Shown: positions 1 to 62,979 of the stretch, one piece after another | Numbering within the stretch: the stretch's first letter is position 1 | Layout of the letters: every line of letters starts with the position of its first letter | Source of the DNA: an uncultured Omnitrophica bacterium | GTDB lineage: Bacteria; Omnitrophota; Gorgyraeia; JACQQV01 | Length of the DNA stretch: 64,000 nucleotides | Assembly: GCA_947085655.1 (NCBI GenBank) | Contig: CAMTXH010000003.1 | Span: 29,850 to 93,849, forward strand | Direction: 5' to 3' | Position numbers and translations under genes: made by a program | Notes under the pieces: generated by a model | Databases searched by the model: none | Seen by the model: the letters and a program-made list of their open reading frames with translations, nothing else | Told to the model about the DNA's origin: nothing

Positions 1-1
1 T

Positions 2-382
2 TTTGGAACCGCGATCACGGTCGACCTTGTCTCAAAAAAAGGGGAGTATCTGGGCGGGGTCATTGCACCGGGAATGGGAATTTCTCTGGAGGCATTGAAG
101 GAGAAAACCGCCCTTCTTCCCAGGGTGAAGCTTCGCCCCCCCCGAACGCTTCTCGGGAGAGATACCAAAGGGAGCATGCTGAGCGGCGCTTTTTATGGCT
201 TTGCATCGCTCTGTGACGGGCTTGTCGTAAACTTGAGGAAAAAATATGGGGGAGGGATTCAGGCGGTTGCCACAGGCGGTCATTCCAATTTTATCTCATC
301 TTATTGTAAAAAAATAAATTATGTCAATCCGCATCTCACCCTTCAAGGGCTCCGGCTTATCTTTGAGGCGATTCGGAAATAA
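2..382 (+). CDS. coaX: type III pantothenate kinase, 5'-truncated at window edge
   Basis: The frame is open from nt 2 with no stop. The C-terminal translation FGTAITVDLVSKKGEYLGGVIAPGMGISLEAL...ATGGHS matches the CoaX/Bvg accessory factor family. Confidence 0.75.
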   Translation, partial: FGTAITVDLVSKKGEYLGGVIAPGMGISLEALKEKTALLPRVKLRPPRTLLGRDTKGSMLSGAFYGFASLCDGLVVNLRKKYGGGIQAVATGGHSNFISSYCKKINYVNPHLTLQGLRLIFEAIRK

Positions 383-10927: not shown

Positions 10928-12202
10928 ATGCAGATTAAAGCCCTGCGGGGAACAGACGATCTCTTTTCGCCCGCTGTTGAAAAATGGCGGAACGTAGAGA
11001 CCGCTGCCCGAGCCGTTTTCAAAAGTTACGCCTTCAAAGAAATCCAGACCCCTTTGCTGGAAGAAACGCTCCTGTTTCAACGCGCCATCGGTGAGACGAC
11101 CGACATTGTTGAAAAACAGATGTACACCTTTCGGGACCGGGGGGAGCGGCTTTTGTCTCTCCGTCCGGAAGGGACTGCACCCGTGATTCGGGCCTACCTG
11201 GAGCGACACCTCGACCAAAATCCCGGTCTTTCGCGCCTTTTTTATATCGGACCGATGTTCCGGGCCGAGCGGCCGCAGGCGGGACGGCTCCGTCAATTTC
11301 ATCAGATCGGGGCGGAGGTGATCGGTTCCTATAGCCCCTATGTGGATGCGGAAGGACTTTCCCTCGTCACCCGTTTTTTTGAACGGTTGGGGCTTTCCGG
11401 AGGCCATCTCCATTTGAATTCCCTCGGATGCGAGAAGGACAAAAAGAAAGTTTCCGCCTTTTTAAAGGAAGCCCTTTCAAAAAAACGGTCCTCTCTATGC
11501 GCCGAATGCCGAAAACGGTTTGAGCGGAACGTCTTCCGGATCCTGGATTGTAAGGAAAAAGGATGCCGTGCGATTGTCCAGTCTCTTGCGCCGATTTTGG
11601 ATCAACTCTGTCAGGAATGTCTCACCCATTTTAAGGAACTCCAAAGCGCATTGAAACGGGCGGGAATCGGTTTCGTCCTTTCGCCGCACCTGGTGCGCGG
11701 GCTCGACTATTACACCCGGACCGCCTTTGAGATCACCCATCCCGCACTCGGGGCACAGGATGCCCTTTGTGCGGGGGGACGGTATGACGGACTGGTGGAA
11801 GCACTCGGCGGAAAACCGACCGGTGCTTTCGGTTTTTCCATCGGGTTCGAACGGCTCCTCATGACACTGGATGCCCAGAAAATTAATGCGGGCGTTCCGG
11901 AGTCCTTGGATGTCTTCATCGTCACGGTGGGGGAGGGAGGTTTTGAGACAGCGTTTGAGATTTCGGAACAACTCCGAAAAGAGGAAATTACCTCCCTTCT
12001 TGATTATGAAGGAAAATCGCTCAAAGCACAGATGCGGCTTGCCAATCATCTGAAAGCGGCGTGGGTGATCTTAGTCGGCGAAGAGGAGCTGAAGGAAAAA
12101 TCGGTCACCCTGAAGGAGATGGAGGGGGGTAAAGAGGAGCGGATTCCCCGTGAAAGAATCGTGAAGGAACTGCAGAACCGCCTGAAAAAGGTAAAGAGCT
12201 GA
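10928..12202 (+). CDS. hisS: histidine--tRNA ligase
   Basis: The 424-aa product has class II aaRS motifs typical of HisRS. Confidence 0.95.
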   Translation: MQIKALRGTDDLFSPAVEKWRNVETAARAVFKSYAFKEIQTPLLEETLLFQRAIGETTDIVEKQMYTFRDRGERLLSLRPEGTAPVIRAYLERHLDQNPGLSRLFYIGPMFRAERPQAGRLRQFHQIGAEVIGSYSPYVDAEGLSLVTRFFERLGLSGGHLHLNSLGCEKDKKKVSAFLKEALSKKRSSLCAECRKRFERNVFRILDCKEKGCRAIVQSLAPILDQLCQECLTHFKELQSALKRAGIGFVLSPHLVRGLDYYTRTAFEITHPALGAQDALCAGGRYDGLVEALGGKPTGAFGFSIGFERLLMTLDAQKINAGVPESLDVFIVTVGEGGFETAFEISEQLRKEEITSLLDYEGKSLKAQMRLANHLKAAWVILVGEEELKEKSVTLKEMEGGKEERIPRERIVKELQNRLKKVKS

Positions 12203-14010
12203 TGCGAAGCCACCGATGCGGCGAACTCCGGAGTGATGCGATCGGGAAGGAGGTCGCCCTCTGCGGTTGGGTTCACCGGCGCCGGGATCACGGGGGGCTG
12301 ATTTTCATTGATCTAAGGGACATCTCGGGACTGGCCCAGGTTGTCTTTCATCCCGACAACAAAAAAGTCTTTCAAGAGGCGAAGGGGCTCCGGGGAGAAT
12401 TTGTGCTTCGGGTCCGGGGAAAAGTTCAGAGACGCCCGAAAGGAACCGAGAATCCGAATCTTGCCACCGGAGAAGTGGAGATCGTCTGCGATTCCTTCGA
12501 AACATTCAATCCGTCTGAAACTCCTCCTTTTGAAGTGGAAGAACAGACCACCGCTTCGGAGGAGGTCCGGCTCGCTTATCGTTATATCGACCTTCGCCGA
12601 GAGAACATGAAGAAAAATTTGATTCTCCGGCACCGGGTGACCCAGCGGGTCCGGAATTTTCTCGACCGGGAGGGATTCATCGATGTGGAAACGCCGATCC
12701 TCACCAAAAGCACGCCGGAGGGGGCCCGGGATTTTCTGGTGCCGAGCCGGTTGAGCCCCGGCACATTTTATGCCCTTCCGCAGTCTCCCCAGCTTTTCAA
12801 ACAGCTCCTCATGGTCTCGGGACTCGACCGTTATTTTCAAATTTCTCGCTGTTTCCGGGATGAGGATCTCCGGGCGGACCGCCAGCTGGAATTCACCCAG
12901 ATCGATATCGAAATGTCATTTCCGGAAGAGAAGACCTTTTTTGAATTGATGGACCGGCTCCTGAAAGATGTTTTCGAGAATGCTTCCGATTTGATCGGGA
13001 AAAAACTGGATTGCACCTTTCAGAGGATGACGTACCAGGAGGCGATTGACCGTTTTGGCGCCGATTCACCGGACCTCCGGTTCGGAGTGGAATTGCAGGA
13101 CCTGACAGATCTTCTCCGGGATTGCGGTTTTAAGGCCTTTGAGTCTGTCGCGAGTAGCGGAGGACGGATCCTCGGGATCAATGCCCCGGGCGGAGTCAAA
13201 CTTTCGGGGAAGCAAATTGAGAAATTAAGAGAAGAGGTAAAGGAACGGGGCGCGCCCGATATCGCTTCTTTTAAATATGAAAAGGGGGAACTGGTCTCCC
13301 CCTTCTCGCATTTTTTCCGAAAGGAGTCTCTCGCCAAAGTCCAAAAAAAATTGGGGATCGGACAACATGACCTTGCCCTGATCGTTGCCGCCAAAGACCC
13401 GTTCAACTGGCAGGCGCTCGGAAGAGTCAGGGATTGCCTGAAGGAGAAAAACTACCTTGAAGACGTTCTTCTCAAGGGAAAGGAAAAGGAGTGCCGGTTT
13501 GTCTGGATTATCGATTTTCCCCTTTTTATCCGGGACGATGAGGGGAATATTGTGTCATCCCACCACCCCTTTACGGCACCCCACCCGGAAGACGTCCCCC
13601 GCCTCGAAAAAACCGGGGAGGAGTTGCTTGCCGTCCGTTCGCGTGCCTATGACCTTGTTCTGAACGGGATTGAACTCGGAAGCGGAAGTGTGAGGATTCA
13701 TGACCGCGGCGTCCAAGAAAAGATTTTTGAGAAACTGAAACTCTCCAAACAGGAACAAGAATCGCGCTTCGGATTTTTATTGAAGGCCTTTCAGTACGGA
13801 GCACCGCCGCATGGCGGCATCGCGTTCGGATTGGACCGTTTGGTCGCGATACTGGTGGATTTCCGGGAGGAGAAGTTTTCCGACACAGAACAAGCGACCA
13901 GCATCCGGGAAGTCATTGCATTTCCCAAAACACAGAAGGGGAGCTGTCCCTTGACCATTGCCCCTTCCGACGTCCCACGGGAGAAATTGAAGGAACTGGG
14001 GTTGAAATAG
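12202..14010 (+). CDS. aspS: aspartate--tRNA ligase
   Basis: The 602-aa product has an OB-fold N-terminus and a class II core. Its ATG overlaps the hisS stop. Confidence 0.95.
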   Translation: MRSHRCGELRSDAIGKEVALCGWVHRRRDHGGLIFIDLRDISGLAQVVFHPDNKKVFQEAKGLRGEFVLRVRGKVQRRPKGTENPNLATGEVEIVCDSFETFNPSETPPFEVEEQTTASEEVRLAYRYIDLRRENMKKNLILRHRVTQRVRNFLDREGFIDVETPILTKSTPEGARDFLVPSRLSPGTFYALPQSPQLFKQLLMVSGLDRYFQISRCFRDEDLRADRQLEFTQIDIEMSFPEEKTFFELMDRLLKDVFENASDLIGKKLDCTFQRMTYQEAIDRFGADSPDLRFGVELQDLTDLLRDCGFKAFESVASSGGRILGINAPGGVKLSGKQIEKLREEVKERGAPDIASFKYEKGELVSPFSHFFRKESLAKVQKKLGIGQHDLALIVAAKDPFNWQALGRVRDCLKEKNYLEDVLLKGKEKECRFVWIIDFPLFIRDDEGNIVSSHHPFTAPHPEDVPRLEKTGEELLAVRSRAYDLVLNGIELGSGSVRIHDRGVQEKIFEKLKLSKQEQESRFGFLLKAFQYGAPPHGGIAFGLDRLVAILVDFREEKFSDTEQATSIREVIAFPKTQKGSCPLTIAPSDVPREKLKELGLK

Positions 14011-14097
14011 GGACGTTTTCAGAAAGTGTCCTCCTGGCCTGCCGGCCAGGGCAGGCCAGCGTGAGGGAGATACAAGGGACACTTTCGAAAACGTCCC
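14009..14097 (+). other. long imperfect hairpin (20-bp stem, 1-nt bulge) carrying conserved motif ACTTTCGAAAACGTCCC; enclosed nested palindrome TGGCCTGCC-GGCCAGG-GCAGGCCA
   Basis: GGACGTTTTCAGAAAGTGTCC (14011-14031) pairs with GGACACTTTCGAAAACGTCC (14077-14096). It lies between the aspS stop and a lipoprotein gene. Confidence 0.5.
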
Positions 14098-14115
14098 AAG
14101 AAAAGGAGCACGACA

Positions 14116-14772
14116 ATGGGCCGTTTCGAAAAGAGCATGTTCAAAATTTTGATTTGGGTGGCGATTCTCTTTGTCTTTTCCGGATGTCTCCGGAAGGTGC
14201 AGGTGGTGAGGCGCGAACGGGTGGACCAAACGCTTGCAGGGAACCGGGGTGTCCTTCTGGGACCTGTTCCGACGACTCCCTCGACGGCGTCAAAGACCCG
14301 GGAGTATATTGAATGGGATTTTGAAGTCCCCACCTATGAAGTCCAGGTTCAGGTGCCTGAATGGCGCCGCGAGTCGGTTGATAAGGAAATCTGGGGAAAC
14401 CGAGGATATCTGTCCGGCAGTTCGGCAAGAAGCGCCCAGGCACCGCGGGTCAGTGTACCTCCTTCAACCCCCAGGCCTCTTCCTCCGAAAACCCCTGTCG
14501 TCTCCCCTGTTCCGGAGACGCCGCCGAAGCCGTTTTGGGAAAAACTTCCCTCAAGGCAGCCCAAACCAGCCGATTTTACCTCTTATACCGTCCAGCGCGG
14601 CGACACATTGGGCAAGATTTCAACCGACGTCTACGGAACCTCGAGAGGATGGCAGCAGATTTACGAGGCGAATCGCGATCTGTTGAGCGACCCGAACCGC
14701 CTGAAGCCGGGACAGACCCTCCGGATTCCGCCGTGGGAAAAGACAAGAAAACCCTCCTCCGGGATCAAATAA
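14116..14772 (+). CDS. proline-rich lipoprotein with C-terminal LysM domain
   Basis: It has a signal peptide and lipobox VFSGC. A Pro-rich linker precedes the LysM domain YTVQRGDTLGKIS...GQTLRIP. An AAGGAG RBS is present. Confidence 0.75.
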   Translation: MGRFEKSMFKILIWVAILFVFSGCLRKVQVVRRERVDQTLAGNRGVLLGPVPTTPSTASKTREYIEWDFEVPTYEVQVQVPEWRRESVDKEIWGNRGYLSGSSARSAQAPRVSVPPSTPRPLPPKTPVVSPVPETPPKPFWEKLPSRQPKPADFTSYTVQRGDTLGKISTDVYGTSRGWQQIYEANRDLLSDPNRLKPGQTLRIPPWEKTRKPSSGIK

Positions 14773-17616: not shown

Positions 17617-18479
17617 ATTTTCAAGATCTGATCGCCGCGTTGAACGATTTTTGGAAGAAAGAGGACTGTATTCTCCTTCAGCCGCTCGATGTGGAAATGG
17701 GGGCCGGAACGTTCCATCCGGCAACCTTCTTCAAGGTCTTGGGAAAGGACCCCTGGCGGACGGCGTATGTTCAGCCCTGCCGGCGGCCGACCGACGGGCG
17801 GTACGGCGAAAACCCCTTCCGAACCCAGCATTATTTTCAATATCAGGTCATTCTCAAACCGTCGCCGGAAGACGTTCAGCGGCTTTACCTGGAAAGTCTC
17901 AAATCGGTCGGCGTCCGCCTGAAGGAGCATGACGTCCGTTTTGTGGAGGACGACTGGGAGTCGCCGACGCTGGGGGCACAGGGGCTCGGATGGGAGGTTT
18001 GGCTGGACAGTCTGGAAGTGACGCAGTTCACCTATTTCCAACGGATTGCAGGGATTGACCTTGAGGTCATTCCGTGCGAGCTGACTTACGGGCTTGAGCG
18101 GGTCTGTATGTTCCTTCAGGGAGAGTATGACCTTTTCAAACTCAAATGGTCCGAGGGTACGACCTACGGCGACCTTTACCGGAAGAACGAAGAAGAATGC
18201 TCCCGTTACAACTTCGAGAAAAGTGACCCGAAGCTTTTTTTGGAACTTTTCAACCGGTATGAATCGGAAATGAAGCGGATGATTGAAGAGGATCTTTTGC
18301 CGTCCGCTTATGATTTTGTGTTGAAGATGTCCCATGTCTTTAATCAGTTGGATGCGCGGGGGGCGGTGAGTCAGATGGAGCGCCCGACCTTCATCGGACG
18401 GGTCCGGAATGCGGCCAAAAAATGCGCGGAACTTTATCTGGAACGGCTGAATGAAACCGAAAAAACAAAAGCAAAATAA
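17613..18479 (+). CDS. glyQ: glycine--tRNA ligase alpha subunit
   Basis: The 288-aa product starts with TTG and reads MNFQDLIAALNDFW. Confidence 0.95.
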   Translation: MNFQDLIAALNDFWKKEDCILLQPLDVEMGAGTFHPATFFKVLGKDPWRTAYVQPCRRPTDGRYGENPFRTQHYFQYQVILKPSPEDVQRLYLESLKSVGVRLKEHDVRFVEDDWESPTLGAQGLGWEVWLDSLEVTQFTYFQRIAGIDLEVIPCELTYGLERVCMFLQGEYDLFKLKWSEGTTYGDLYRKNEEECSRYNFEKSDPKLFLELFNRYESEMKRMIEEDLLPSAYDFVLKMSHVFNQLDARGAVSQMERPTFIGRVRNAAKKCAELYLERLNETEKTKAK

Positions 18480-20565
18480 CTCGAGCGAACTTCTCCTTGA
18501 AATCGGCACGGAGGAAATTCCGTGGTCCTACCTTGAGGGCCTTGGGGATCCCGAGCGCGGTCTCAATGCCCTTGTGAAAACGCTCCTTCCTGAATCCTTC
18601 CGGGATGAAGCAGAAATCAGGAGTTTTCAGACGCCCTGCCGGATCGTCCTTTGGGTCCTGGGACTTCCTCCATTTGATGAAAGGAAAGAGGAGGTTGTGG
18701 GTCCCAGGAAAGAGGCCTGCTATGGCTCCGACGGGAAGCCGACGGCCGCGCTTCAGGGATTCTTGAAAAGTAAAAATGCGGCTGCTAGAGATTTGACTGA
18801 GGAAAAAGGACGGATGGTCATTCGGAGAAGCGTCCGGACTTCCACCGAAACTCTTTTAAAGATCCAAATCCAGCATCTTGTCCAGCTTTTGAGCTTTCCC
18901 AAAATGATGCGTTGGAATGAGAGGGATATCCGTTTCCCGAGACCGGTCCGATGGCTTCTCTGTCTTTACAACGGGAAGGTTCTTCCGCTTTCAGACCTCC
19001 CCTTCAAGGCGGATCGAAAAACGTTCGGCTTGGGGCCGTTCAAAAAACCGCGTAGTATCCAAAAGCCGCCGGAATACTTCTCCTTTTTAAAAAAGGAGGG
19101 GATTCTTCTGGAGGAATTTTCCACACCCGACGGAGAAGGGGAACGGAAACGGACCATCCGGAAGCAATGTGAGCAGCTGGTCAGGCGGCTTGGGGGAGAT
19201 CCGGCCCGGATCGACCCGGCGCTTCTGGCTGAGGTGACAAACCTTGTCGAAAAACCGTTCCTTTTCGCCGGCACGGTCAATAAAACCTATCTTGATCTTC
19301 CGAAAGAGGTGTTGATTGCGAGCATGGCGAAGTATCAGCGGCTTTTTGCGGTGGAAGACCGCCGCGGAAAACTCCTTCCTTCTTTCATCGCCTGCGCCAA
19401 CGGAAGACCGTCTTTGGTCAAAATCCGGAAAAACTACGAGCAGGTATTAAATGCGCGTCTTGAGGATGCCCACTTCTTTTTCACAGCGGACATGCGCGAA
19501 ACACTCTCCCGGAAACGGGACCGGCTGAAACAGCTTATCTATCATCGAAAACTCGGGACGATGTTCGATAAATCGGAACGGATGGCAGAGGTGGCTTCGG
19601 CCCTTGCCGGGAAGGTCGGAGTTCAGGAATTCGCATTGGCTCAGGCCGCACGGCTTGCCAAAAATGACCTTGTGACGGCAATGGTCAAAGAATTTCCGTC
19701 GCTTCAGGGGGTGATCGGGTACTATTACGCGCGGAGGGAAGGGGTTTCGGAGGAGATTTCCCGCGCCCTTTGGGAGCAGTATTTGCCGAAGGGAACCGAT
19801 GCGGAACTCCCCAAAACGGCGCTGGGGGCGGCCCTTTCGTTCCTTGAAAAACTCGACCATCTGACCGGCTTTTTCCATGCGGGTGAAGTGCCGACCGGAA
19901 GCATGGACCCCTACGGTCTCCGGAGGGCCGCCAACGCCCTTTTCAGGATTCTCCTCGAGAGAAAATGGCATCTTCCTTTTGCGGAACTGGTCGAGAAAAA
20001 CCTCGAGCGCTTTTCGGCTGCCCTCGAAACCCGGTTGAAACTCCATGAATTTCTTCTGGAGCGTTTGAAGAGCATTTGTCGGGAGAGGGGATACCGGAGC
20101 GACTTGGTTGAAGCGGTGTCGCGTGACCTCCGGGACCCGGTCGAAACGGAAAAGAAGCTGAGTTCCCTTAGTCAGATGATGTCCACGCAGAAGGAGACCT
20201 TTTTGGCCGCTTTCAAGGTGGTGGAGCGGACCCACAACATCCTGAAACCGGTACAACCCAAAGAACAGCAGGGACTTGGGAGCGTCCGGCCGGACCTTTT
20301 CCAGGATGAAATTGAAAAAAACCTCTGGAACTTATACAATACAGGGAAGCGTCCGATTGAGAAACTGATCGCCGAAAGCGCCTGGAGCCAGGCCACGGCC
20401 CGTTATGCCCAGACCTTTTCGGAAACGTTGCATCAGTTTTTTGATAAGGTTTTGGTTAATGTGGAAGATCCGGGCATCCGGCGTAACCGCCTGGCTCTGA
20501 TGAAAGAAATCAACGAACTCTATACCAAGCCGGTGGCGGATCTCTCCAAACTGATCATTGAATAA
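18451..20565 (+). CDS. glyS: glycine--tRNA ligase beta subunit
   Basis: The 704-aa product contains LLLEIGTEEIP. It overlaps glyQ by 29 nt because no alternative in-frame start exists. Confidence 0.9.
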   Translation: MKPKKQKQNNSSELLLEIGTEEIPWSYLEGLGDPERGLNALVKTLLPESFRDEAEIRSFQTPCRIVLWVLGLPPFDERKEEVVGPRKEACYGSDGKPTAALQGFLKSKNAAARDLTEEKGRMVIRRSVRTSTETLLKIQIQHLVQLLSFPKMMRWNERDIRFPRPVRWLLCLYNGKVLPLSDLPFKADRKTFGLGPFKKPRSIQKPPEYFSFLKKEGILLEEFSTPDGEGERKRTIRKQCEQLVRRLGGDPARIDPALLAEVTNLVEKPFLFAGTVNKTYLDLPKEVLIASMAKYQRLFAVEDRRGKLLPSFIACANGRPSLVKIRKNYEQVLNARLEDAHFFFTADMRETLSRKRDRLKQLIYHRKLGTMFDKSERMAEVASALAGKVGVQEFALAQAARLAKNDLVTAMVKEFPSLQGVIGYYYARREGVSEEISRALWEQYLPKGTDAELPKTALGAALSFLEKLDHLTGFFHAGEVPTGSMDPYGLRRAANALFRILLERKWHLPFAELVEKNLERFSAALETRLKLHEFLLERLKSICRERGYRSDLVEAVSRDLRDPVETEKKLSSLSQMMSTQKETFLAAFKVVERTHNILKPVQPKEQQGLGSVRPDLFQDEIEKNLWNLYNTGKRPIEKLIAESAWSQATARYAQTFSETLHQFFDKVLVNVEDPGIRRNRLALMKEINELYTKPVADLSKLIIE

Positions 20566-20591
20566 ATAGAGAGGGATGATTCAAGGGATAC

Positions 20592-20629
20592 CCGGCCTGT
20601 CGGCCAGGACAGACTTTCGAAAACGTCCC
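20592..20629 (+). other. second copy of intergenic motif GGCCTGYCGGCCAGGRCAG + ACTTTCGAAAACGTCCC
   Basis: It shares a 17-nt identity with 14081-14097. It lies between the glyS stop and the ppdK start. Confidence 0.45.
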
Positions 20630-20641
20630 CAGAAAGGATAC

Positions 20642-23353
20642 ATGCCAAAATACGTTTACTTTTTCGGCGGAGGGAAGGCGGACGGGAATGCCGCAATGAA
20701 GGAGCTTTTAGGCGGGAAGGGTGCGAATCTGGCCGAAATGACCAACGCGGGCGTTCCGGTTCCCCCCGGTTTTACCATCACCACCGAGGTCTGCAAACTC
20801 TTTTACCGGAATCAAAAGAGGGTTCCGTCCGCCATCGCCGATGAGATTGACAAGAATCTCCAGCGGTTGGAGAGGACGATGAAGGCGCGGCTGGGGGATC
20901 CGGTGAATCCTTTGCTCCTTTCCGTCCGCTCCGGCGCAAAATTTTCGATGCCGGGTATGATGGACACGATTCTGAATCTCGGGCTCAACGACAGGACGGT
21001 GGAGGGACTCATCCGGAAGACAAAAAATGAACGGTTTTCCCTCGATTGTTACCGACGCTTCATCCAGATGTTCGGGAACGTTGTCCTCGGAATAGAGAAA
21101 TATGTCTTTGAAGAGATTATTCTGGAGAGGAAAAAACTCCGCCGCATTACCCAGGACACCGAACTGGATACCACCGACCTGAAGGAACTGATCCGGCAAT
21201 TCAAGGAAACGGTCCGCTATGATACCCAGGAAGAGCTGCCGCAGGATGCCCGGCGACAGCTGGAGATGGCGCGGGATGCGGTCTTTCTTTCCTGGAACAA
21301 CGAGCGGGCCATTTTTTACCGGAAACAGTACCGCATTCCGGATGACTTGGGGACGGCGGTGAATGTCCAGACGATGGTCTTCGGAAACATGGGAAAGACC
21401 TCGGGGACCGGCGTCGGGTTTACCCGGAATCCCTCCACCGGTGAAAAGGAGTTCTTCGGAGAGTATCTCACTAATGCGCAGGGCGAGGATGTGGTGGCGG
21501 GGGTCCGGAATCCGAAGCCTATCGGTGAATTGAAGAAAGAGATGCCTTCCGTTTACAAGGAACTGGCGGGAATTACCCGGCGTCTTGAACGGAACTACCG
21601 GGACGTTCAGGATTTCGAGTTTACGATCCAGGAAGGGAAACTTTACATGCTTCAGACCCGGACCGGGAAGCGGACCGGCCCGGCCGCCGTCAAGATTGCG
21701 GTTGATATGGTTCAGGAAAAATTGATTGCCCCCAAGGAGGCGGTGTTGCGGGTGGAGCCGGACCAATTGGACCAGTTGCTTCATCCCCGGATTGACCCGA
21801 AAGTGGAGGTTAAGGTCATTGCCAGGGGTCTGAATGCCTCGCCCGGTGCTGCGGTCGGAAAGGCCTTTTTTGATGCGACGGAGGCGGCCGAGGCGGCCAA
21901 AAAGGGGGAGCGGGTGGTGTTGATCCGAAAGGAGACCTCGCCGGACGATATCCACGGCATTGCCGCGGCACAGGGGATATTGACCGCGACCGGCGGAGCC
22001 ACCTCGCATGCGGTGGTGGTCTCCCGGCAGATGGGCAAGCCCTGCGTGGCCGGATGTTCGGCCATTGCCATCGATGAAGAAAAAGGACTTTTCGAAGTCA
22101 ACGGTCTCCAGGTCAAAAAGGGGGAGATGATTGCGATTGACGGGACAACCGGCCGCGTGATGGTGGGGGATGTCCCGACCATCAAGCCGGATATGCGGGA
22201 TCTGGAAAAAGGCGATTACGGAAAACTCCTCCGCTGGGCAGACCAATACCGGATGCTCGGCGTCCGCGCCAATGCGGATACGCCCCAGGATGCGACCATC
22301 GCCCGGCAAAACGGCGCGGAGGGAATCGGCCTCTGCCGGACAGAGCATATGTTTTTTGCGACGGACCGGCTTCCGATCGTGCAGGAGATGATTCTCGCCT
22401 CCACCCTCGAAGACCGGAAGCGCGTCCTCGACAAACTCGCGCCGATGCAAAAACAGGATTTCAAGGAAATTTTCCGGGTCATGAAGGGACATCCGGTGAC
22501 CATCCGTCTTCTGGACCCTCCTCTTCATGAATTTCTCCCGAATCGGGACGAACTGGTCGAGGAAATTCAGGAACTGGAGCTTTCAAAGAAAGAGCCCGAG
22601 CTTCTCCAGCTAAAGAAAAATCTTTTGGCCCGGATCGCCCAGCTCCATGAGTTTAATCCGATGCTGGGTCTCCGGGGTTGCCGCCTCGGGATTACGATGC
22701 CGGAGATCACGCAGATGCAGGCAAGGGCGATTCTGGAGGCGGCCTGCGAACTGGTCCGGGAGAAGATTCGCGTCTATCCGGAGATCATGATTCCGCTGGT
22801 GGGGACGGTGGAGGAATTCCGTCATCAAAAACGGGTCATCCTGGAAACGGCTGCGGAGGTTTTCAAGGTGCAAGGTCATCCGGTCCGCTTTTTAATCGGA
22901 ACGATGATAGAAATTCCGCGTGCCGCCCTCACCGCCGGAGAAATTGCCAAAGAAGCGGACTTTTTCAGTTTCGGAACCAACGATCTCACCCAAATGACCT
23001 TCGGCTTTTCCCGGGATGATACCGGGAAGTTTCTCCCGAAGTATCTGGACGAAAAGATTCTTAATTTCGATCCCTTTGTCACCATTGACCAGGAGGGCCT
23101 CGGACAACTTATCCGGATGGGGACGGAGAACGGGCGGAAGAGCCGGCCGGAGCTGAAGGTCGGAATCTGCGGTGAGCATGGCGGAGAGCCCCAGAGCGTC
23201 ATCTTCTGTCATAAAGTGGGGCTCAACTATGTCAGTTGCTCCCCCTATCGGGTTCCCATTGCCCGTCTTGCTGCGGCAAGAGCCGCCTTGGAAGAAGAAT
23301 TTCCATCCCCGGGGCGCAAGACTCAGAAAAAAACGCGTTCAAAGCGGAAGTAA
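20642..23353 (+). CDS. ppdK: pyruvate, phosphate dikinase
   Basis: The product is about 903 aa and starts [11 protein letters not shown]. It has PEP-utilising and PPDK domains and a Lys-rich C-terminal tail. Confidence 0.95.
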
Positions 23354-29401: not shown

Positions 29402-29518
29402 GTTGCCTCCGCTTGCCGCTCGCTTCGATGACGCATCTTTGCTCGCTGTGGAGCAAATCCGCCGCGACACTGGATCGCGGTTTGGGATGCGTCGGATTTT
29501 CTACAGTCGCTCCGGCAA
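29402..29518 (+). repeat. 117-nt conserved structured element, copy 1 (candidate ncRNA or MITE-like element) enclosed by 13-bp inverted flanks GAAAGTCCGGGAG / CTCCCGGACTTTC
   Basis: It is 115/117 identical to 62863-62979. It contains the internal hairpins TTTGCTC-gctgtg-GAGCAAA and CCGCGA-cactgga-TCGCGG. Confidence 0.7.
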
Positions 29519-45185: not shown

Positions 45186-45199
45186 TTTTCCCGCATACC

Positions 45200-45370
45200 G
45201 ATAAGGGCAAACCGCGGGAGACCGCGGGACATCCGCGAGTGAGGCATTCATCCTCCGGATTCCCCGCCAGAGCGGCGGGGAGCAAAGCCATGGGTCCTTA
45301 AAACGGTGAAGGGTGTCAGAACACCTAACACCACACGCCGTTTTACAGGATCGCCAGGCTGCCGAAGTAA
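45200..45370 (+). promoter_or_regulatory. structured 5' leader with c-di-GMP-I (GEMM)-like motifs
   Basis: GGGCAAACC-CCGCGG-GAGA-CCGCGG-GAC (45205-45230) mirrors the Vc2 riboswitch P2 arm GGGCAAACC-stem-GNRA-stem-GGGAC. GCAAAGCC lies at 45282-45289. Further hairpins are CCCCGCC-agag-GGCGGGG and UAAAACGG...CCGUUUUA. The spacing between the two motif blocks is longer than in the canonical aptamer. Confidence 0.3.
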
Positions 45371-45929: not shown

Positions 45930-48797
45930 GTGTCCAGACGGAAAATAATTTTTCTTTTTATCCCAATTTTTCTTTTATCGACTCCTTTAGAAGGGGCGGT
46001 GAATGAAGATGCAATCCGCTACCGGATCCGGGGCTACCAACTCCAGCACCAGGGCTATGTGGAGGAAGCGATCGAACTCTACCGGAAGGCGATCGAGGCG
46101 GACCCGAACTATGCTGCTCCCCACAATGACCTGGGCGTCATTTACGAAGAACGGGGGGATCTGAAACTGGCGGAAGGGGAGTACCTGGAAACACTCCGGA
46201 TCGACCCCCAATACGTCGATGCCTATTCCAATCTTGCCATTCTCTACGGCAAACAGAATCAAAGAGAAAAGATGCTTGAAATGCTGAAAAAGCGGGTTGA
46301 CTTGGGGGAGCCGGAGGATATCGGAACCCGCGAGGCGCAGGCGAAACTGGATTCTTTGGGTGTGGTGACGGAAATTCCCGAGAAACCCCGGCCCGCTGTT
46401 CCTCCTTTTGAGAAAAGACCTTCTGCCGAAATCAGGCCCCTGAAGGAGATTCCGGAAGCCCCTCCGGTTGTAGAGGCAAAGGAGGAGCAAAAGGCGCTCC
46501 GGGAGGAAATGAAGGCGGTTAAAAAGGAAATTTTAGAGAAAGAAACGGCTGCGCGAAAACTGGAGGATCGGGAGAAAGCGGTTCAGGTTGTTGAAGAGCC
46601 TGCTGCTGAAAAAGCGGCGGCACTCCGGAATGAAGGGTTGAAACACCACCAAAAGGGCGAGCTGGATGAGGCGATCCGGAATTACCGGGAGGCGATCCGC
46701 ATGAACCCCGATTTTGCAACCGCCTACAACGACCTGGGAATTGCCCTGGAGGAAAAAGGGTTTCTGGAAAACGCCGAGACCCAATACCTGAATGCACTGG
46801 CACTCGATCCTTCCTACACCCATGCCCTCTATAACCTCGCTCTTCTCTACGCCAAAATGGAACGGCGGAAAGAGGCGATTCAAACCCTTGAAGAATTTCT
46901 GAAAAAGAAAGTGGACAGCAAGCGGAGCGGCGTCGCCCGGGCCAAACTCGAAGTCCTTTTGAATGAGGAAAAAGAAGAGGCCGAGCGGCTTGCCCGGGAA
47001 CAAGAGGCCAAACGGCTCGAAGCAGAGGCGAAACGCCGCCAGGAGGAGGAAGCAAGGAAGCGGGAAGAGGCTTTGGCGTCTCTCCGGGGGGAAGTCGAGA
47101 AAGAGGTCAAAGCCGAATATGAAGAGAAATTCAAACTGACCCAATTTTTTGAGCAGGGCAAGGTCGCTTTTCAAAACGGGGATTACCCGACGGCAAAAGA
47201 CCTCTTTGAAAAACTCCTCGTGATCGACCCGGAAAACGAAATGGGAAAAACCTATCTCGCCAAGGTTGAGGAAGCCGTTCAGGAAGCGGAACGGAAAAAA
47301 GAGATAGAAGCCGAAAGACAACGACAAGAGGCGGAAGAGGCGCGCCGGATGGAAGAGGAGAAAAGAGTGAAAGAGGAAGAGAAACAAAAGCGTACGACAG
47401 CCCTTTATGATGAAGCGAAAGAGATGTACCGTTCCGGCAATCTGGATAATGCCCTTCTCCGCTTTCAGGAGATTCTGATCCTCGAACCGGAACATCCCTA
47501 TGCAGGACGGTATGTGGATCGGATTCGGGAACGAAAAGAGGAACTTGAGGCGGAGAGGATCGCCCGTGAGAAGGCGGCCCGTGAGGAAGACCAGGCGCGC
47601 CGGCGCCAAATCGCCGAGTATTTTGAGGAAGCGGAAAAACAGGTTCGGGAGCGTTCCTACGACGAAGCAATCAAGACGTATCGAGAACTTCTTTTACTCG
47701 ACCCGGAGCATAAAGAGGCGAATCGACGGCTTGAGGAGATCCGGGAGACCCTCCGGAAAAAGAAAGAGGAAAAACATCTCGCCAAAATCCGCAAAAAAGA
47801 GACACGTCTTGAAGGTGCCGAGAAGCGGATGAAAGAATCGGCTCAGACGTATTACCAAGCAGGGCTCAAAGCGTTCCGGGAGGAAAAACTGGATCAGGCC
47901 GAATATGCGTTCCGAAAGGTCCTTTCATACGACAAAAGTCACAAAGAGGCGAATAAGCAGCTTGTCCTCTTGATGGAAAAACAGGCGGAGCTGGAGGCAA
48001 GGGTCTGGCGGGAGGAACAGGAGGCCATTTTCCGAAAGGAATACACCCCCGCCGAAGAAAAACGGCTTTACGAACGGGCAAAGGCGGCTTATGACGCGGG
48101 GGATTATCGGATGGCGCAGAAAACGCTCGAGTATCTCCTTTTTCTTGACCCGAATCATCCGTTTGCGCCGAGGGATCTGGATGAAGTGGAGGCCAAAATC
48201 CGGGTAGCGCATCAAAAGGAGGCGGTGGCCGAGGCGGCCCTCAAAAAGGAAGCTCGGAAAACCCTTTCCCGTCCTCCCTCTGTCAGTGTGACTGAACCTT
48301 TTCTCCGGGCTCAAACCAAGCCCCAGGAAATCCCCTATTTCCGGCCGTCCCCTTCCGATCGGCTGGATGCTTTCGTGGAGGATGAACCGGTTTGGACAGA
48401 CGCGCACCAGGCGATGGAAAGGGTCGCCCTTGCCTACCATCAGCAGGCGTATGACCTTCAACGTCAGAACGACGTTGAAGGGGCCATTGCCCAATACCGG
48501 AAGGCGATGGCGATCCGCTCGACACCGGGGGCGGCGAACAGTTTGGGTGTCTTGTATGAAAAGAAGGGATGGTACACCCAAGCGGAACAGTATTACAAAA
48601 AAGCGCTGAGACTTGATCCGGCGTATCTGGCGGCCCATACGAATCTGGCCCTTCTCTATGAGGATTTGGAGCGCAAGGAGGAGGCCCTGGCCCACTGGCG
48701 GATCCGGGCCGAGCAAGGGAAAAAGGGAGAGGCGTGGACTGAGCACGCCCGGCGCCGCCTTGAGGCGGTTCAGGCGGTTCCTGAAAAGAACCCTTGA
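45930..48797 (+). CDS. large secreted TPR-repeat protein with interspersed Lys/Glu/Arg-rich coiled-coil segments
   Basis: The 955-aa product has a signal peptide and a GTG start after a GGAGGA RBS. Pairs of TPR motifs (AxxYxNLGxxY) recur about 8 times and are separated by EEAERLAREQEAKRLE-type charged helices. Confidence 0.75.
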   Translation: MSRRKIIFLFIPIFLLSTPLEGAVNEDAIRYRIRGYQLQHQGYVEEAIELYRKAIEADPNYAAPHNDLGVIYEERGDLKLAEGEYLETLRIDPQYVDAYSNLAILYGKQNQREKMLEMLKKRVDLGEPEDIGTREAQAKLDSLGVVTEIPEKPRPAVPPFEKRPSAEIRPLKEIPEAPPVVEAKEEQKALREEMKAVKKEILEKETAARKLEDREKAVQVVEEPAAEKAAALRNEGLKHHQKGELDEAIRNYREAIRMNPDFATAYNDLGIALEEKGFLENAETQYLNALALDPSYTHALYNLALLYAKMERRKEAIQTLEEFLKKKVDSKRSGVARAKLEVLLNEEKEEAERLAREQEAKRLEAEAKRRQEEEARKREEALASLRGEVEKEVKAEYEEKFKLTQFFEQGKVAFQNGDYPTAKDLFEKLLVIDPENEMGKTYLAKVEEAVQEAERKKEIEAERQRQEAEEARRMEEEKRVKEEEKQKRTTALYDEAKEMYRSGNLDNALLRFQEILILEPEHPYAGRYVDRIRERKEELEAERIAREKAAREEDQARRRQIAEYFEEAEKQVRERSYDEAIKTYRELLLLDPEHKEANRRLEEIRETLRKKKEEKHLAKIRKKETRLEGAEKRMKESAQTYYQAGLKAFREEKLDQAEYAFRKVLSYDKSHKEANKQLVLLMEKQAELEARVWREEQEAIFRKEYTPAEEKRLYERAKAAYDAGDYRMAQKTLEYLLFLDPNHPFAPRDLDEVEAKIRVAHQKEAVAEAALKKEARKTLSRPPSVSVTEPFLRAQTKPQEIPYFRPSPSDRLDAFVEDEPVWTDAHQAMERVALAYHQQAYDLQRQNDVEGAIAQYRKAMAIRSTPGAANSLGVLYEKKGWYTQAEQYYKKALRLDPAYLAAHTNLALLYEDLERKEEALAHWRIRAEQGKKGEAWTEHARRRLEAVQAVPEKNP

Positions 48798-48822
48798 CAA
48801 CCCTCTAGGCGCAGGATATACT
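48794..48822 (+). promoter_or_regulatory. consensus sigma70 promoter TTGACA-N17-TATACT upstream of polA, immediately followed by GAAAACGTCCC motif
   Basis: Read from the sequence. Confidence 0.55.
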
Positions 48823-48907
48823 GAAAACGTCCCACATTTTTTCGTAAAATACCCACAAAATCTCATGTCGAGCCCGCGTCCCGTGTTTTCCCTTATGTGA
48901 TTCCCGA

Positions 48908-51562
48908 ATGAAAAAGGAAAGGGCTTTTTTGATCGACGGTAACGCCATGTGTTACCGTGCCTACTACGCCATCCGTTCGTTGAGTACGCGGGACGGAAGA
49001 CCGACCAACGCCGTCTACGGCTTTATGGCGATGCTCAAAAAACTCCTCGCGGAGGAAAAGCCGGACTATCTGGCGGTTTCTTTCGATTTGAAAGGGGAGA
49101 CCTTCCGAAAAAAGGCCTTCGAATCCTACAAAATTCACCGTAAACCGATGCCCGATGATTTGGCGGAGCAGATGCCCGTGGTTAAGGAGATGCTCGGGTA
49201 TTACCGAATTCCCATTTTTGAGAAAGAAGGGTACGAGGCGGATGATCTCCTCGCCACCCTTTCCCGCCGCCTCTCCGGCAAAGGCATTTCAGTTTATATC
49301 GTGACGGGGGACAAAGATATGCTGCAACTGGTCTCCGACAACATTTTCGTCTATAACGCCCACAAGGAGGGATTGATTTACGGACGAAAAGAGGTCCAGG
49401 AGCGTTTCGGAGTCGGTCCGGAAAAGATTGTGGAACTGATCGGCCTTTGCGGGGATTCCAGTGACAATATCCCGGGCGTACCGGGGATCGGTGAAAAAAC
49501 AGCAATGGGTCTCATTCAAAAATTTGGGACGGTCGAAAAAGTCCTCTCCAACGTGGATAGAGTGGAAGGAGAATCGAGGCGGCGCGCCTTAAAGCAACAT
49601 GCCGGGCAGGCGCGGCTTTCGAGGGAACTGGCCCTTTTGGTCCAGGACGCCCCTTTGGAGGTCTCGCTGGAGGCGCTCCGGCCAAAAACACCCGACGGGG
49701 AAAAACTTTTCCAGTTTTTCAAGTCGCTTGAGTTTAAAACATTCCTGCCGGAGTTTGTCCCGGAACATCCCGAAGGGGGCGATTATTGCCTGATCCAAAC
49801 CCAAAAGGAGCTTGAAGATTTTTTCAAAAAGCTCCGTTCTGTCAAAAAATTCGCCTTTGATTTTGAAACGACGTCAGAGGACGCAATGAAGGCGGAGATC
49901 GTCGGGATCTCCTTTTCCTGGGAGGAGGGGGAGGCCTTTTACGTCCCATTCGGGGATAAGGGGTTCCCGGAATCCGAAGTTTTGGAGGGACTCCGGAACA
50001 TTCTGGAAGACCCCGACGTTTTAAAAATCGGGCAGAACATCAAGTACGAAATGATGATTCTCGCCCAGAGGGGCATTTCACTCCGGGGAATCTCTTTTGA
50101 TACGATGATCGCCTCCTATCTTCTGAACCCCTCCAGACCCAACCATAACCTCGGTGAGATTGCGCTCGAGTATCTGTCCAGGCGAAAGACGCCGATTACA
50201 GAACTCATCGGGAAAGGAAGGTCCCAGAAATCAATGGCGGAGGTGCCGGTTGAGAGGGTCACGGCCTACGCCTGCGAGGACAGCGACCTCACCTTCCGCC
50301 TGGGAAACGTTCTCTCCAAAGAACTCCGGAAGGAAAATCTGGAGGAACTTTTTGAGACGATGGAGCGGCCTCTGATCGGGGTTTTGGCCTCCATGGAACA
50401 GGCGGGGGTTGCGATTGACGCCCCTCTCCTAAAGGAGCTGACGGGAGAGATGGACCGGAAACTGAAGAAACTGACCCAGGACATTTTTGAAATGGCCGGT
50501 TCCGAATTCAACATCAACAGTCCCAAGCAGCTGCAGGAGATTCTCTTCCGGAAACTGAGACTCCCGATTCTCAAACGTACCAAAACCGGCGCCTCAACCG
50601 ACGCCTGGGTTCTGGAGCAATTGGCTGTGATCCATCCCCTCCCTAAAACCATCGTTCAGTACCGGGAAATTGCCAAACTCAAATCAACGTATGTGGACAC
50701 CCTCCCGAATCTGGTTCATCCGAAGACCGGACGGATCCACGCCTCTTTCAACCAAACCGTCACCGCCACCGGACGGCTCTCCTCCTCCGATCCCAACCTC
50801 CAGAATATTCCTGTCCGGACTGAAGAGGGGCGCAAAATCCGGAAGGCCTTTATCCCGCGCGAAAAGGGATGGTGTCTTGTCTCCTTCGATTACTCGCAGA
50901 TTGAACTCCGGATTCTGGCCCATCTTTCGAAAGACGACGCCTTGAAGGAGGCCTTTCGAAAGGGACAGGATGTTCATCGTCTCACGGCGAGTCTCATCTA
51001 CGATGTTCCGGAGGAAGAGGTGGAGGACCCGATGCGGGAGACGGCAAAGACCGTGAACTTCGGGATCCTTTACGGAATGAGCCCCTTCGGGCTTTCCCGG
51101 GACCTTGGGATTGATGTGGGGCAGGCGAGGATGTTCATTGACGCTTACTTTGAACGATACCCGAAAGTGAAAACATACATTGAGAGGCAGATTGAGGAGG
51201 CGAGGGAGGAAGGGATGGTCACCACCCTTTTTAATCGCCGACGGGTTCTTCCGGAAATCCGGAGCCAGAACATGAGCGAACGTCAATGGGGGGAGCGGAT
51301 TGCCATCAATGCGCCGATTCAGGGAACCGCCAGCGACCTCATTAAAATGGCAATGATTGAGATTCACAGGGAACTGGAGAAGCGGAAGAGCCGAGGTGGG
51401 ATGGTGATCCAGGTGCACGATGAACTCGTCTTTGATATGCCGGAGGAGGAAGAAAGGATTCTCTCTCCCCTCATTCAGGAAAAAATGGAGAAGGGGACGA
51501 AGCTTTCGGTTCCGATTCAAGTGACGGTGAAGCGGGGAAAAAACTGGATGGAAATGGAATGA
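48908..51562 (+). CDS. polA: DNA polymerase I
   Basis: The 884-aa product has a 5'-3' exonuclease domain, a 3'-5' exo-like domain and a polymerase domain. Confidence 0.95.
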   Translation: MKKERAFLIDGNAMCYRAYYAIRSLSTRDGRPTNAVYGFMAMLKKLLAEEKPDYLAVSFDLKGETFRKKAFESYKIHRKPMPDDLAEQMPVVKEMLGYYRIPIFEKEGYEADDLLATLSRRLSGKGISVYIVTGDKDMLQLVSDNIFVYNAHKEGLIYGRKEVQERFGVGPEKIVELIGLCGDSSDNIPGVPGIGEKTAMGLIQKFGTVEKVLSNVDRVEGESRRRALKQHAGQARLSRELALLVQDAPLEVSLEALRPKTPDGEKLFQFFKSLEFKTFLPEFVPEHPEGGDYCLIQTQKELEDFFKKLRSVKKFAFDFETTSEDAMKAEIVGISFSWEEGEAFYVPFGDKGFPESEVLEGLRNILEDPDVLKIGQNIKYEMMILAQRGISLRGISFDTMIASYLLNPSRPNHNLGEIALEYLSRRKTPITELIGKGRSQKSMAEVPVERVTAYACEDSDLTFRLGNVLSKELRKENLEELFETMERPLIGVLASMEQAGVAIDAPLLKELTGEMDRKLKKLTQDIFEMAGSEFNINSPKQLQEILFRKLRLPILKRTKTGASTDAWVLEQLAVIHPLPKTIVQYREIAKLKSTYVDTLPNLVHPKTGRIHASFNQTVTATGRLSSSDPNLQNIPVRTEEGRKIRKAFIPREKGWCLVSFDYSQIELRILAHLSKDDALKEAFRKGQDVHRLTASLIYDVPEEEVEDPMRETAKTVNFGILYGMSPFGLSRDLGIDVGQARMFIDAYFERYPKVKTYIERQIEEAREEGMVTTLFNRRRVLPEIRSQNMSERQWGERIAINAPIQGTASDLIKMAMIEIHRELEKRKSRGGMVIQVHDELVFDMPEEEERILSPLIQEKMEKGTKLSVPIQVTVKRGKNWMEME

Positions 51563-62862: not shown

Positions 62863-62979
62863 GTTGCCTCCGCTTGCCGCTCGCTTCGATGACGCATCTT
62901 TGCTCGCTGTGGAGAAAATCCGCCGCGACACTGGATCGCGGTTTGGGATGCGTCGGATTTTCTACAGTCGCGCCGGCAA
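62863..62979 (+). repeat. 117-nt conserved structured element, copy 2, enclosed by different inverted flanks CCATCAGGG / CCCTGATGG
   Basis: It is 115/117 identical to copy 1. It lies between metF and gcvT. Confidence 0.7.

Follow-up and report, generated by a model that had tools for sequence, protein, structure and literature searches.

A composite palindromic repeat between aspS and lysM in an Omnitrophica operon, and the dispersed 25-nucleotide family nested in it

Why does an 88-nucleotide (nt) hairpin stand between the stop codon of aspS and the next gene of a long operon? The hairpin is found on the forward strand of a 64,000-nt stretch (hereafter the window) of contig CAMTXH010000003.1, from an uncultured Omnitrophica bacterium (assembly GCA_947085655.1). 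An earlier note, made from the letters of the window alone, described it, recognized one of its arms again upstream of ppdK and polA, and proposed a shared element: a transcription-factor operator, a 5'-leader motif or a small repeat family. The last of these proposals stands and the first two do not, as the element is absent in relatives, its copies are heterogeneous, and its inner unit is dispersed in unrelated genomes.

The hairpin is probably mobile palindromic DNA, composite and non-autonomous, which entered the operon behind the aspS stop codon and ahead of the ribosome-binding site (RBS) of the following gene. It belongs to a repeat family and is composed of two kinds of unit, A and B. 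Unit B is dispersed across many loci and is polymorphic for presence and absence. We assign the aspS hairpin to the class of elements that resemble repetitive extragenic palindromes (REPs) and REP doublets forming hairpins (REPINs). The 25-nt family nested within it, that of unit B, is previously unreported and mainly borne by Chloroflexota.

Anatomy and copies of the repeat

The hairpin spans 14010-14097 on the plus strand and consists of a 21-bp stem, one bulged A and a 44-nt interior, in agreement with the sequence and coordinates of the stem of about 20 bp, single bulge and nested palindrome described earlier. Its inner palindrome reads TGGCCTGCC-GGCCAG-GGCAGGCCA. The element directly adjoins the aspS stop codon (TAG, 14008-14010), whose G may double as the first base of the repeat. 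Folding of the segment as RNA confirms a stable structure (minimum free energy -57.4 kcal/mol, z -7.85, with none of 200 shuffles equally stable). The minus-strand RNA (z -7.6) and the single-stranded DNA (-35 kcal/mol, z -9.5) also fold. The RBS of lysM begins 4 nt 3' of the stem and is unpaired in the fold. The element is carried by five independent assemblies with the exact AspS protein, namely the metagenome-assembled genome (MAG) GCA_964374045.1 and four Logan assemblies; it is therefore real sequence and not an assembly artefact. One sample has the variant GTGTTCCCCTGG for GTGTCCTCCTGG where the arm meets the inner palindrome.

Parts of the hairpin recur in the same genome. The 17-mer ACTTTCGAAAACGTCCC in the 3' arm occurs exactly at 14081 and at 20613, so that its reported recurrence between glyS and ppdK (site 2) is exact. 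For the 11-mer GAAAACGTCCC, the chance expectation of about 0.03 per 64 kb is sound as a simple expectation, and the reported count of three is too low: there are four exact copies, at 14010 on the minus strand and at 14087, 20619 and 48823. Allowing up to one mismatch gives eight matches, compared with a shuffle mean of 3.0, and none of 100 shuffles reaches eight. The 19-nt palindrome pattern of B, GGCCTGYCGGCCAGGRCAG, occurs twice in the window, against 0.06 expected. Upstream of polA (site 3), the recurrence at 48823-48833 is genuine and was reported as too short; the 13-mer CTGAAAACGTCCC (48821-48833) is shared with the reverse complement of the 5' arm of site 1 (14010-14022).

Altogether, five A units are present at four loci in the approximately 84 kb of the source genome that were read (the window and its flanks on contigs L119 and L120), every one of them at a gene boundary. 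All copies in the window are intergenic, as the earlier note stated, and copies abut the stop codons of both aspS and glyS. Its statement that the orientation is always the same has no real meaning: site 1 contains both orientations, and the copy on L120 lies the opposite way. The components of each copy are listed in Table 1.

Table 1. Components of the repeat and adjoining features, in window coordinates unless L120 is named
Feature	Position	Strand	Remarks
aspS	12202..14010	+	602 aa; open reading frame (ORF) list, Pfam tRNA-synt_2/GAD, 100% match to P0001
Site 1, arm unit A, forward copy GGGACGTTTTCAGAAAGTGTCC	14010..14031	+	5' arm of long hairpin
Site 1, unit B, nested 25-nt palindrome, CG variant TCCTGGCCTGCCGGCCAGGGCAGGCC	14032..14057	+	Widespread family, consensus tCCCTGGCCTGTCGGCCAGGACAGGC
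Site 1, doublet spacer AGCGTGAGGGAGATACAA	14058..14075	+	Unpaired in fold; homologous to site 2 20570-20584
Site 1, arm unit A, inverted copy GGGACACTTTCGAAAACGTCCC	14076..14097	+	3' arm; contains 17-mer ACTTTCGAAAACGTCCC
Ancestral aspS-lysM spacer with RBS AAGAAAAGGAGCACGACA	14098..14115	+	Outside repeat; junctions of relatives compared
Site 2, left part: spacer homologue and start of inverted A unit (..GAGGGATGATTCAAGGGATAC)	20566..20591	+	Alignment to site 1
Site 2, unit B, TA variant, shortened CCGGCCTGTCGGCCAGGACAG	20592..20612	+	Within A unit; AC on either side
Site 2, rest of inverted A unit, exact 17-mer ACTTTCGAAAACGTCCC	20613..20629	+
Ancestral glyS-ppdK spacer with RBS CAGAAAGGATAC	20630..20641	+	ppdK ATG at 20642
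Site 3, relic of inverted A unit GGATATACTGAAAACGTCCC	48814..48833	+	Upstream of polA; 20 nt
L120 copy	L120 16129-16195	opposite orientation	4 kb past window end; between lplA-like ORF and panB

The copies differ in their composition. Site 1 has the order A (forward), B, 18-nt spacer and A (inverted). When 23 nt (20591-20613) are removed from site 2, the remainder aligns to the spacer and 3' arm of site 1 with few mismatches, as GAGGGA(T)GATWCAAGGGAYACTTTCGAAAACGTCCC. On this alignment, site 2 is a half element with B inside an A unit; another reading, in which the element was complete and its 5' arm had decayed, was dropped, since a spacer and 3' arm with inserted B align far better. The L120 copy reads GGGACGTTT, B, 16 nt and GTGTCCCC. 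It lacks the 17-mer, and a predicted ORF reaches into it with its 3' tail only. Thus, B occupies three different positions relative to A in three copies, and all three B copies of the source genome touch A. The lplA-like ORF (L120 15559-16227) reads through the A/B copy and thereby gains about 33 codons at its C-terminal end; probably, the repeat has taken the place of the native 3' end of this gene, unless the ORF was predicted too long.

Unit A (GGGACGTTTTCGAAAGTGTCCC) contains a GGGAC that can pair with GTCCC, with additional G-T pairs. A scan of 596 Gb of genome contigs with the pattern CTTTCN{0,1}GAAAACGTCCC returned at least 113 single matches in unrelated phyla, which were set aside as chance matches to a pattern that is too short. 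One match to the 17-mer in a viral contig was likewise judged to be chance.

Comparison with relatives indicates how the elements came to their positions. Two syntenic relatives, L243 (AspS 70% identical) and L245 (an 'Omnitrophica' MAG, 66%), retain the gene order hisS-aspS-lysM-phoH-ybeY-dgkA-recO-glyQ-glyS-ppdK. Between aspS and lysM, L245 has taaAAGAAAGGAGCAGCGACatg (17 nt) and L243 has tagAAAGGAGTGGCACGatg (14 nt), where the window has, after the stop codon tag, the 87-88-nt element and AAGAAAAGGAGCACGACAatg, 105 nt in total. Between glyS and ppdK, the spacers are tagTTCAGAAAGAGGAGAAAAatg (18 nt) in L245 and tagAAAGGAAGAAAatg (11 nt) in L243, compared with taa, about 64 nt and CAGAAAGGATACatg (76 nt) in the window. 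The RBS stretch directly 3' of each window element is the same as that in the short spacers of the relatives; both elements are thus extra DNA in a tightly packed operon, set exactly behind a stop codon and ahead of an ancestral RBS. Judged by these junctions, the elements at sites 1 and 2 are lineage-specific insertions.

This comparison also bears on two features that had been counted as parts of the motif. The 'AGAAARGA/RBS-like stretch' belongs to the ancestral spacer and is present in relatives that lack the element, so that the case for a conserved operator or leader loses its mainstay. Likewise, the motif lies 30-75 nt upstream of a start codon because it entered intercistronic spacers that are very short in this operon.

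Site 1 is preceded by hisS and aspS and followed by a LysM-domain gene (14116-14772) and phoH; site 2 stands between glyS (18451-20565) and ppdK (20642-23353; PPDK domains); and site 3 follows a tetratricopeptide repeat (TPR) gene (45930-48797) and precedes polA (48908-51562; PolA domains). The nearest named relatives of AspS are in Candidatus Omnitrophota MAGs (66% identity). The region upstream of the window (L119, 10 kb) contains a groES-groEL-groES arrangement and an intein-containing uvrB. In L243, dnaE and phoH contain inteins, which the source genome does not have.

At site 3, the core indeed lies directly downstream of a -10-like hexamer of polA, as the earlier note observed, in a promoter-like TTGACA-17-TATACT (48794-48822, plus strand, 11 of 12 matches). 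Its -35 hexamer TTGACA shares bases with the TPR stop codon, and the -10-like TATACT is built from part of a decayed A unit. Nothing similar to a promoter was found at sites 1 and 2. The predicted promoter at polA may have arisen by chance from a decayed repeat, as a by-product only. Further upstream, a c-di-GMP-I riboswitch aptamer (45196-45366, plus strand; 38.4 bits, threshold 35) precedes the gene of the 955-aa TPR protein before polA.

The nested 25-nucleotide family

Unit B is a 25-nt double palindrome, CCCTGGCCTGTCGGCCAGGACAGGC, that is found far beyond the source genome. A metagenome scan with GGCCTGYCGGCCAGGRCAG returned at least 120 loci, including at least 80 copies that are family-type by their extended context (CC[C/T]...GG[C/T]); 73 of those are unique. 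The search pattern fixed all other positions of B, so covariation could be seen at one pair only: among the 80 copies listed, this pair is T/A in 70, C/G in seven and mixed in three, which is compensatory for the stem GCCTGYC/GRCAGGC. The B copies of sites 1 and 2 differ in the same way (C/G and T/A, respectively). Their surroundings are diverse. The 68 unique loci listed with full 24-nt flanks fall into 56 groups of unrelated flanks, and the GC content of the loci listed ranges from 42 to 71%.

B caps locus-specific hairpins more frequently than chance would allow. At least six and up to 17 consecutive complementary bases flank the core at 13 of the 68 loci listed; permuted flanks gave 0.86 such loci on average and at most five in 500 trials. 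None of the six reading frames of B contains a stop codon. Within stop-free frames that reach 250 aa, some of them unverified as genes, B lies on the same strand in 16 cases and on the opposite strand in 16, and this lack of strand bias favours an element acting at the DNA rather than the RNA level.

The hosts belong to the Chloroflexota and Anaerolineae. Relatives of the malQ genes that carry B are named Anaerolineales or Chloroflexota; one further locus matches Candidatus Desulfolinea (L169) and two are from Chloroflexota (L202 and L174). A search of PLSDB plasmids with the B consensus returned only two weak Streptomyces matches, and 2.9 million viral contigs contained one family-type copy; these viral scans gave no sign of a phage vehicle. 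No paper was found in a full-text literature search for the B sequence string, and no Rfam family matched B at gathering or permissive thresholds.

The presence and absence of B is best seen in malQ (4-alpha-glucanotransferase), where orthologues on contigs L145, L210 and L231 differ by clean insertions. Where L145 reads GACTG/CGCTGCAAAA, L231 has 48 extra nt, comprising the core and 16 nt, bounded by the 7-bp direct repeat CTGCGCT. In turn, the palindrome CCGCAGTC-TCT-GACTGCGG is empty in L231, and the orthologous site of L145 reads GCGCAGTC-A-(core)-A-GACTGCGC; in L145, the B core therefore occupies the loop of this palindrome. L210 carries a 75-nt insert with a diverged core. MalQ orthologues in databases measure from 494 aa, the baseline, to 562 aa, and the longer ones contain the B-encoded peptides PGLSARTG, ACPGRQARE or LPVLADRPG, corresponding to three reading frames. 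The persisting inserts have lengths divisible by three, which fits a filtering of insertions by selection. An IS3-like transposase also contains a 27-nt in-frame B core (YVI-PWPVGQDRL-DIYSRYVVGW); its empty form is presumably the motif of such enzymes.

Several other arrangements were seen. The malQ genes of Anaerolineales (L145, L210, L231; P0121-P0140) have two hot spots with several short in-frame palindromic insertions, some with palindromes other than B (e.g. ATGCAATGTC-GGA-GACATTGCAC). In five loci of a lineage with about 48% GC (L127, L158, L169, L207, L211), B is part of a larger conserved repeat, ..CTGCGGCATTTTCRAGCATTTTT-B-GCTGGCTTCRRGTTTTTCCTGC.., between unrelated genes, apparently a composite on the pattern of A plus B. 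Two B cores stand in tandem 31 nt apart at L171 3257-3311, and the core is internally duplicated at L208 33-80. The window itself contains a 117-nt repeat at 29402-29518 and 62863-62979 (98% identity), each copy enclosed by locus-specific inverted repeats of about 14-16 bp. Its structures are very stable (plus strand z -5.6 and -3.7, minus strand z -6.9); it has no Rfam match, and it shares with B the pattern of a conserved core inside a locus-specific stem. Logan contigs end at its second copy.

Proposed mechanism and competing explanations

The backbone of the aspS element is a REPIN-like doublet, in which two inverted 22-nt A units and a spacer form one long hairpin as single-stranded DNA or RNA. 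Site 2 is a half element and site 3 a decayed relic of the same A family. Spread would depend on a trans-acting enzyme that recognizes hairpin DNA; to judge from the REP/REPIN literature, this would be an HUH/Y1 transposase of the REP-associated tyrosine transposase (RAYT) type in the case of REPs. Elements spreading as single-stranded hairpins would leave no target duplication, with which the clean junction at site 1 (TAG/.../AAGAAA) agrees, and singlets and relics would be their decay products. B would move or recombine independently of A, with a preference for hairpin-forming DNA. Any effects on mRNA would be by-products, the 21-bp stem acting as a barrier to 3'-exonucleases or as an RNase III target in the polycistronic transcript; the element may have a secondary, lineage-specific effect of this kind.

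Several observations weigh against a mobile REPIN-like repeat. Neither a RAYT nor any other transposase is present in the gene tables (window 1-14 and 51-64 kb, both 10-kb flanks) or among ten mid-window proteins, the region of 23-45 kb being partly annotated. Similarly, no recurrent transposase lies next to B when stop-free frames of at least 100 aa within about 2.5 kb are clustered, nor at the two-copy loci L204 and L180, which were inspected individually. An IS110-like gene was considered as a mobilizing candidate and rejected, as it occurs in three B loci yet is not adjacent to B. The evidence for mobility of B stems from other organisms, and A is known from the 84 kb of the source genome only. 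Folded alone as single-stranded DNA, unit A is no better than shuffles (z -0.64), and it is the doublet that forms the structure. REPs carry a terminal tetranucleotide, an unpaired GTAG or, in a second super-family, CGTC (PMC3733652); the copies described here have no terminal GTAG (flanks ATAG, TTAG, CTTG), and their CGTC is base-paired within the stem. The relatives are distant (66-70% AspS identity), and insertion here is preferred over loss there because of parsimony and the intact ancestral RBS. In the source species, neither the aspS nor the ppdK insertion was seen with an empty-site allele, and site 1 shows no target-site duplication when set against the empty junctions of the relatives. 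The ends of contigs inside elements give weak support, since contigs break elsewhere too; they were at one point taken as proof of multi-copy status and were downgraded because the same contigs break at coding position 17987.

Two alternatives deserve consideration, both of them improbable. In the first, the hairpin is a functional RNA under selection, either an intercistronic terminator or attenuator or a signal for mRNA stabilization or processing, and recurs by chance. A very stable hairpin directly 3' of a stop codon would suit such a role, as would the compensatory change in the B stem between copies, and REPs are themselves reported to stabilize or terminate mRNA (background in PMC3733652). 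However, the stem is followed by CGTCCCAAGAAAAGG / AAGAAAAGGAG and not by a U-tract, and a terminator scan of site 1 found no terminator-like site on the plus strand and one weak site on the minus strand. The site-2 fold is no better than shuffles (z -1.2), the relatives manage without the element, and B is evenly divided between same and opposite orientation relative to the coding strand. Rfam contains no family that matches the element region at gathering threshold; the best matches below it were HIV_FE (22.9 bits, threshold 45) and mir-763 (19.3 bits, threshold 100), and the likeness to the HIV frameshift hairpin is coincidence.

The second alternative, to which we give an equally small chance, is a classical miniature inverted-repeat transposable element (MITE): a deletion derivative of an insertion sequence, with 21-bp terminal inverted repeats (GGGACGTTTTC... 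termini) recognized by a DDE transposase. An intergenic element of 88 nt with near-perfect terminal inverted repeats of 21/22 nt fits this description. Nevertheless, the junction at site 1 has no target-site duplication, no insertion sequence with such ends was found in the 84 kb read, and the half and relic copies, together with the doublet-of-units anatomy, are better explained by decay of a REP/REPIN.

Least probable of all, and very unlikely in our view, is a shared cis-regulatory element of lysM, ppdK and polA, be it an operator with the palindromic core TTTCGAAA or a common 5'-leader motif: the motif does lie upstream of three start codons and, at polA, directly 3' of a near-consensus promoter-like site, but it is missing from the orthologous junctions of both syntenic relatives (genes 11-18 nt apart), the three genes share no pathway, the copies range from doublet to half element to relic with B at varying positions, the fourth copy (lplA-like gene/panB) is oppositely oriented and lacks the 17-mer, and the promoter-like site has no counterpart at sites 1 or 2.

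The reading of the hairpin as an inserted mobile repeat has practical consequences. In annotation, such an insertion should not be misread as a regulon signal or a terminator, and the repeat would explain why assemblies of the source organism tend to break at these points. It also documents REPIN-like elements in an uncultured lineage related to Omnitrophota. In addition, it introduces a 25-nt palindrome family, mainly of Anaerolineae, that nests in other palindromes and lies in frame within housekeeping genes such as malQ.

A bolder proposal, which we advance tentatively and regard as possible though doubtful, is that B is a mobile unit in its own right. It would be among the smallest known, free of stop codons and so able to persist in genes; it would home in on the loops of hairpin DNA, and Chloroflexota and an Omnitrophota-like lineage would have it in common with hardly a base changed. 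If so, horizontal spread and a conserved trans-acting enzyme other than a flanking RAYT would be implied. The wide distribution of B and its filled and empty sites would then offer a practical route to an enzyme that moves very small repeats.

Comparison with known systems

The aspS element most resembles a REPIN, which is defined as an inverted REP doublet that forms a hairpin with its spacer, singlets being decayed remnants (PMC3116915, Bertels & Rainey 2011). It likewise comprises two inverted short units and a spacer that form one hairpin of about 90 nt (about 70-110 nt for the class). Dimers of REPs have spacers of 20-100 bp, some with a small stem-loop (PMC3733652, Di Nocera et al. 2013), and the aspS element also has a small stem-loop in its spacer, accompanied elsewhere by singlets and relics as decayed copies. 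Like REPs, it is extragenic, lies directly 3' of an ORF and runs into a TAG stop codon at one end. The reported host range of REPs includes Chloroflexi and the PVC group (PMC3116915; PMC3733652). In contrast to REPs, a single A unit is not a convincing palindrome, and no RAYT was found in the annotated parts of the 84 kb.

An intrinsic (Rho-independent) terminator would similarly be a GC-containing hairpin directly 3' of a stop codon. The aspS hairpin differs in lacking a U-tract, in its 21-bp stem and 44-nt interior, and in its position within an operon, where the next start codon follows after 18 nt.

Unit B by itself is comparable to the small dispersed repeats (SDRs) of 21-27 nt that Elhai et al. 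2008 (Genome Res) reportedly described in Nostoc and its relatives. The two, compared by description only, share a length of about 25 nt, many unrelated contexts, nesting in other repeats, a hairpin with compensatory changes and a lack of coding capacity. B differs in its sequence, in its hosts (Chloroflexota and an Omnitrophota-like organism, not cyanobacteria), and in its frequent location at the apex of palindromes and inside ORFs. To our knowledge, the enzyme that moves SDRs and CGTC-type repeats is still unknown.

In its manner of insertion, B finds parallels among larger repeats. The Rickettsia palindromic elements (RPEs) and the intragenic REPs of Opitutus terrae are palindromic repeats in frame in housekeeping genes, to whose products they add short peptides (PMC3733652). 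Some REPs are also inserted within palindromes of the host, as are GTAG-23 of T. roseum and CGTC-1 of H. neapolitanus (PMC3733652). The 25-nt core of B is smaller than these and untagged; the likeness drawn here is one of insertion pattern, by which a palindrome enters a gene and leaves its reading frame intact.

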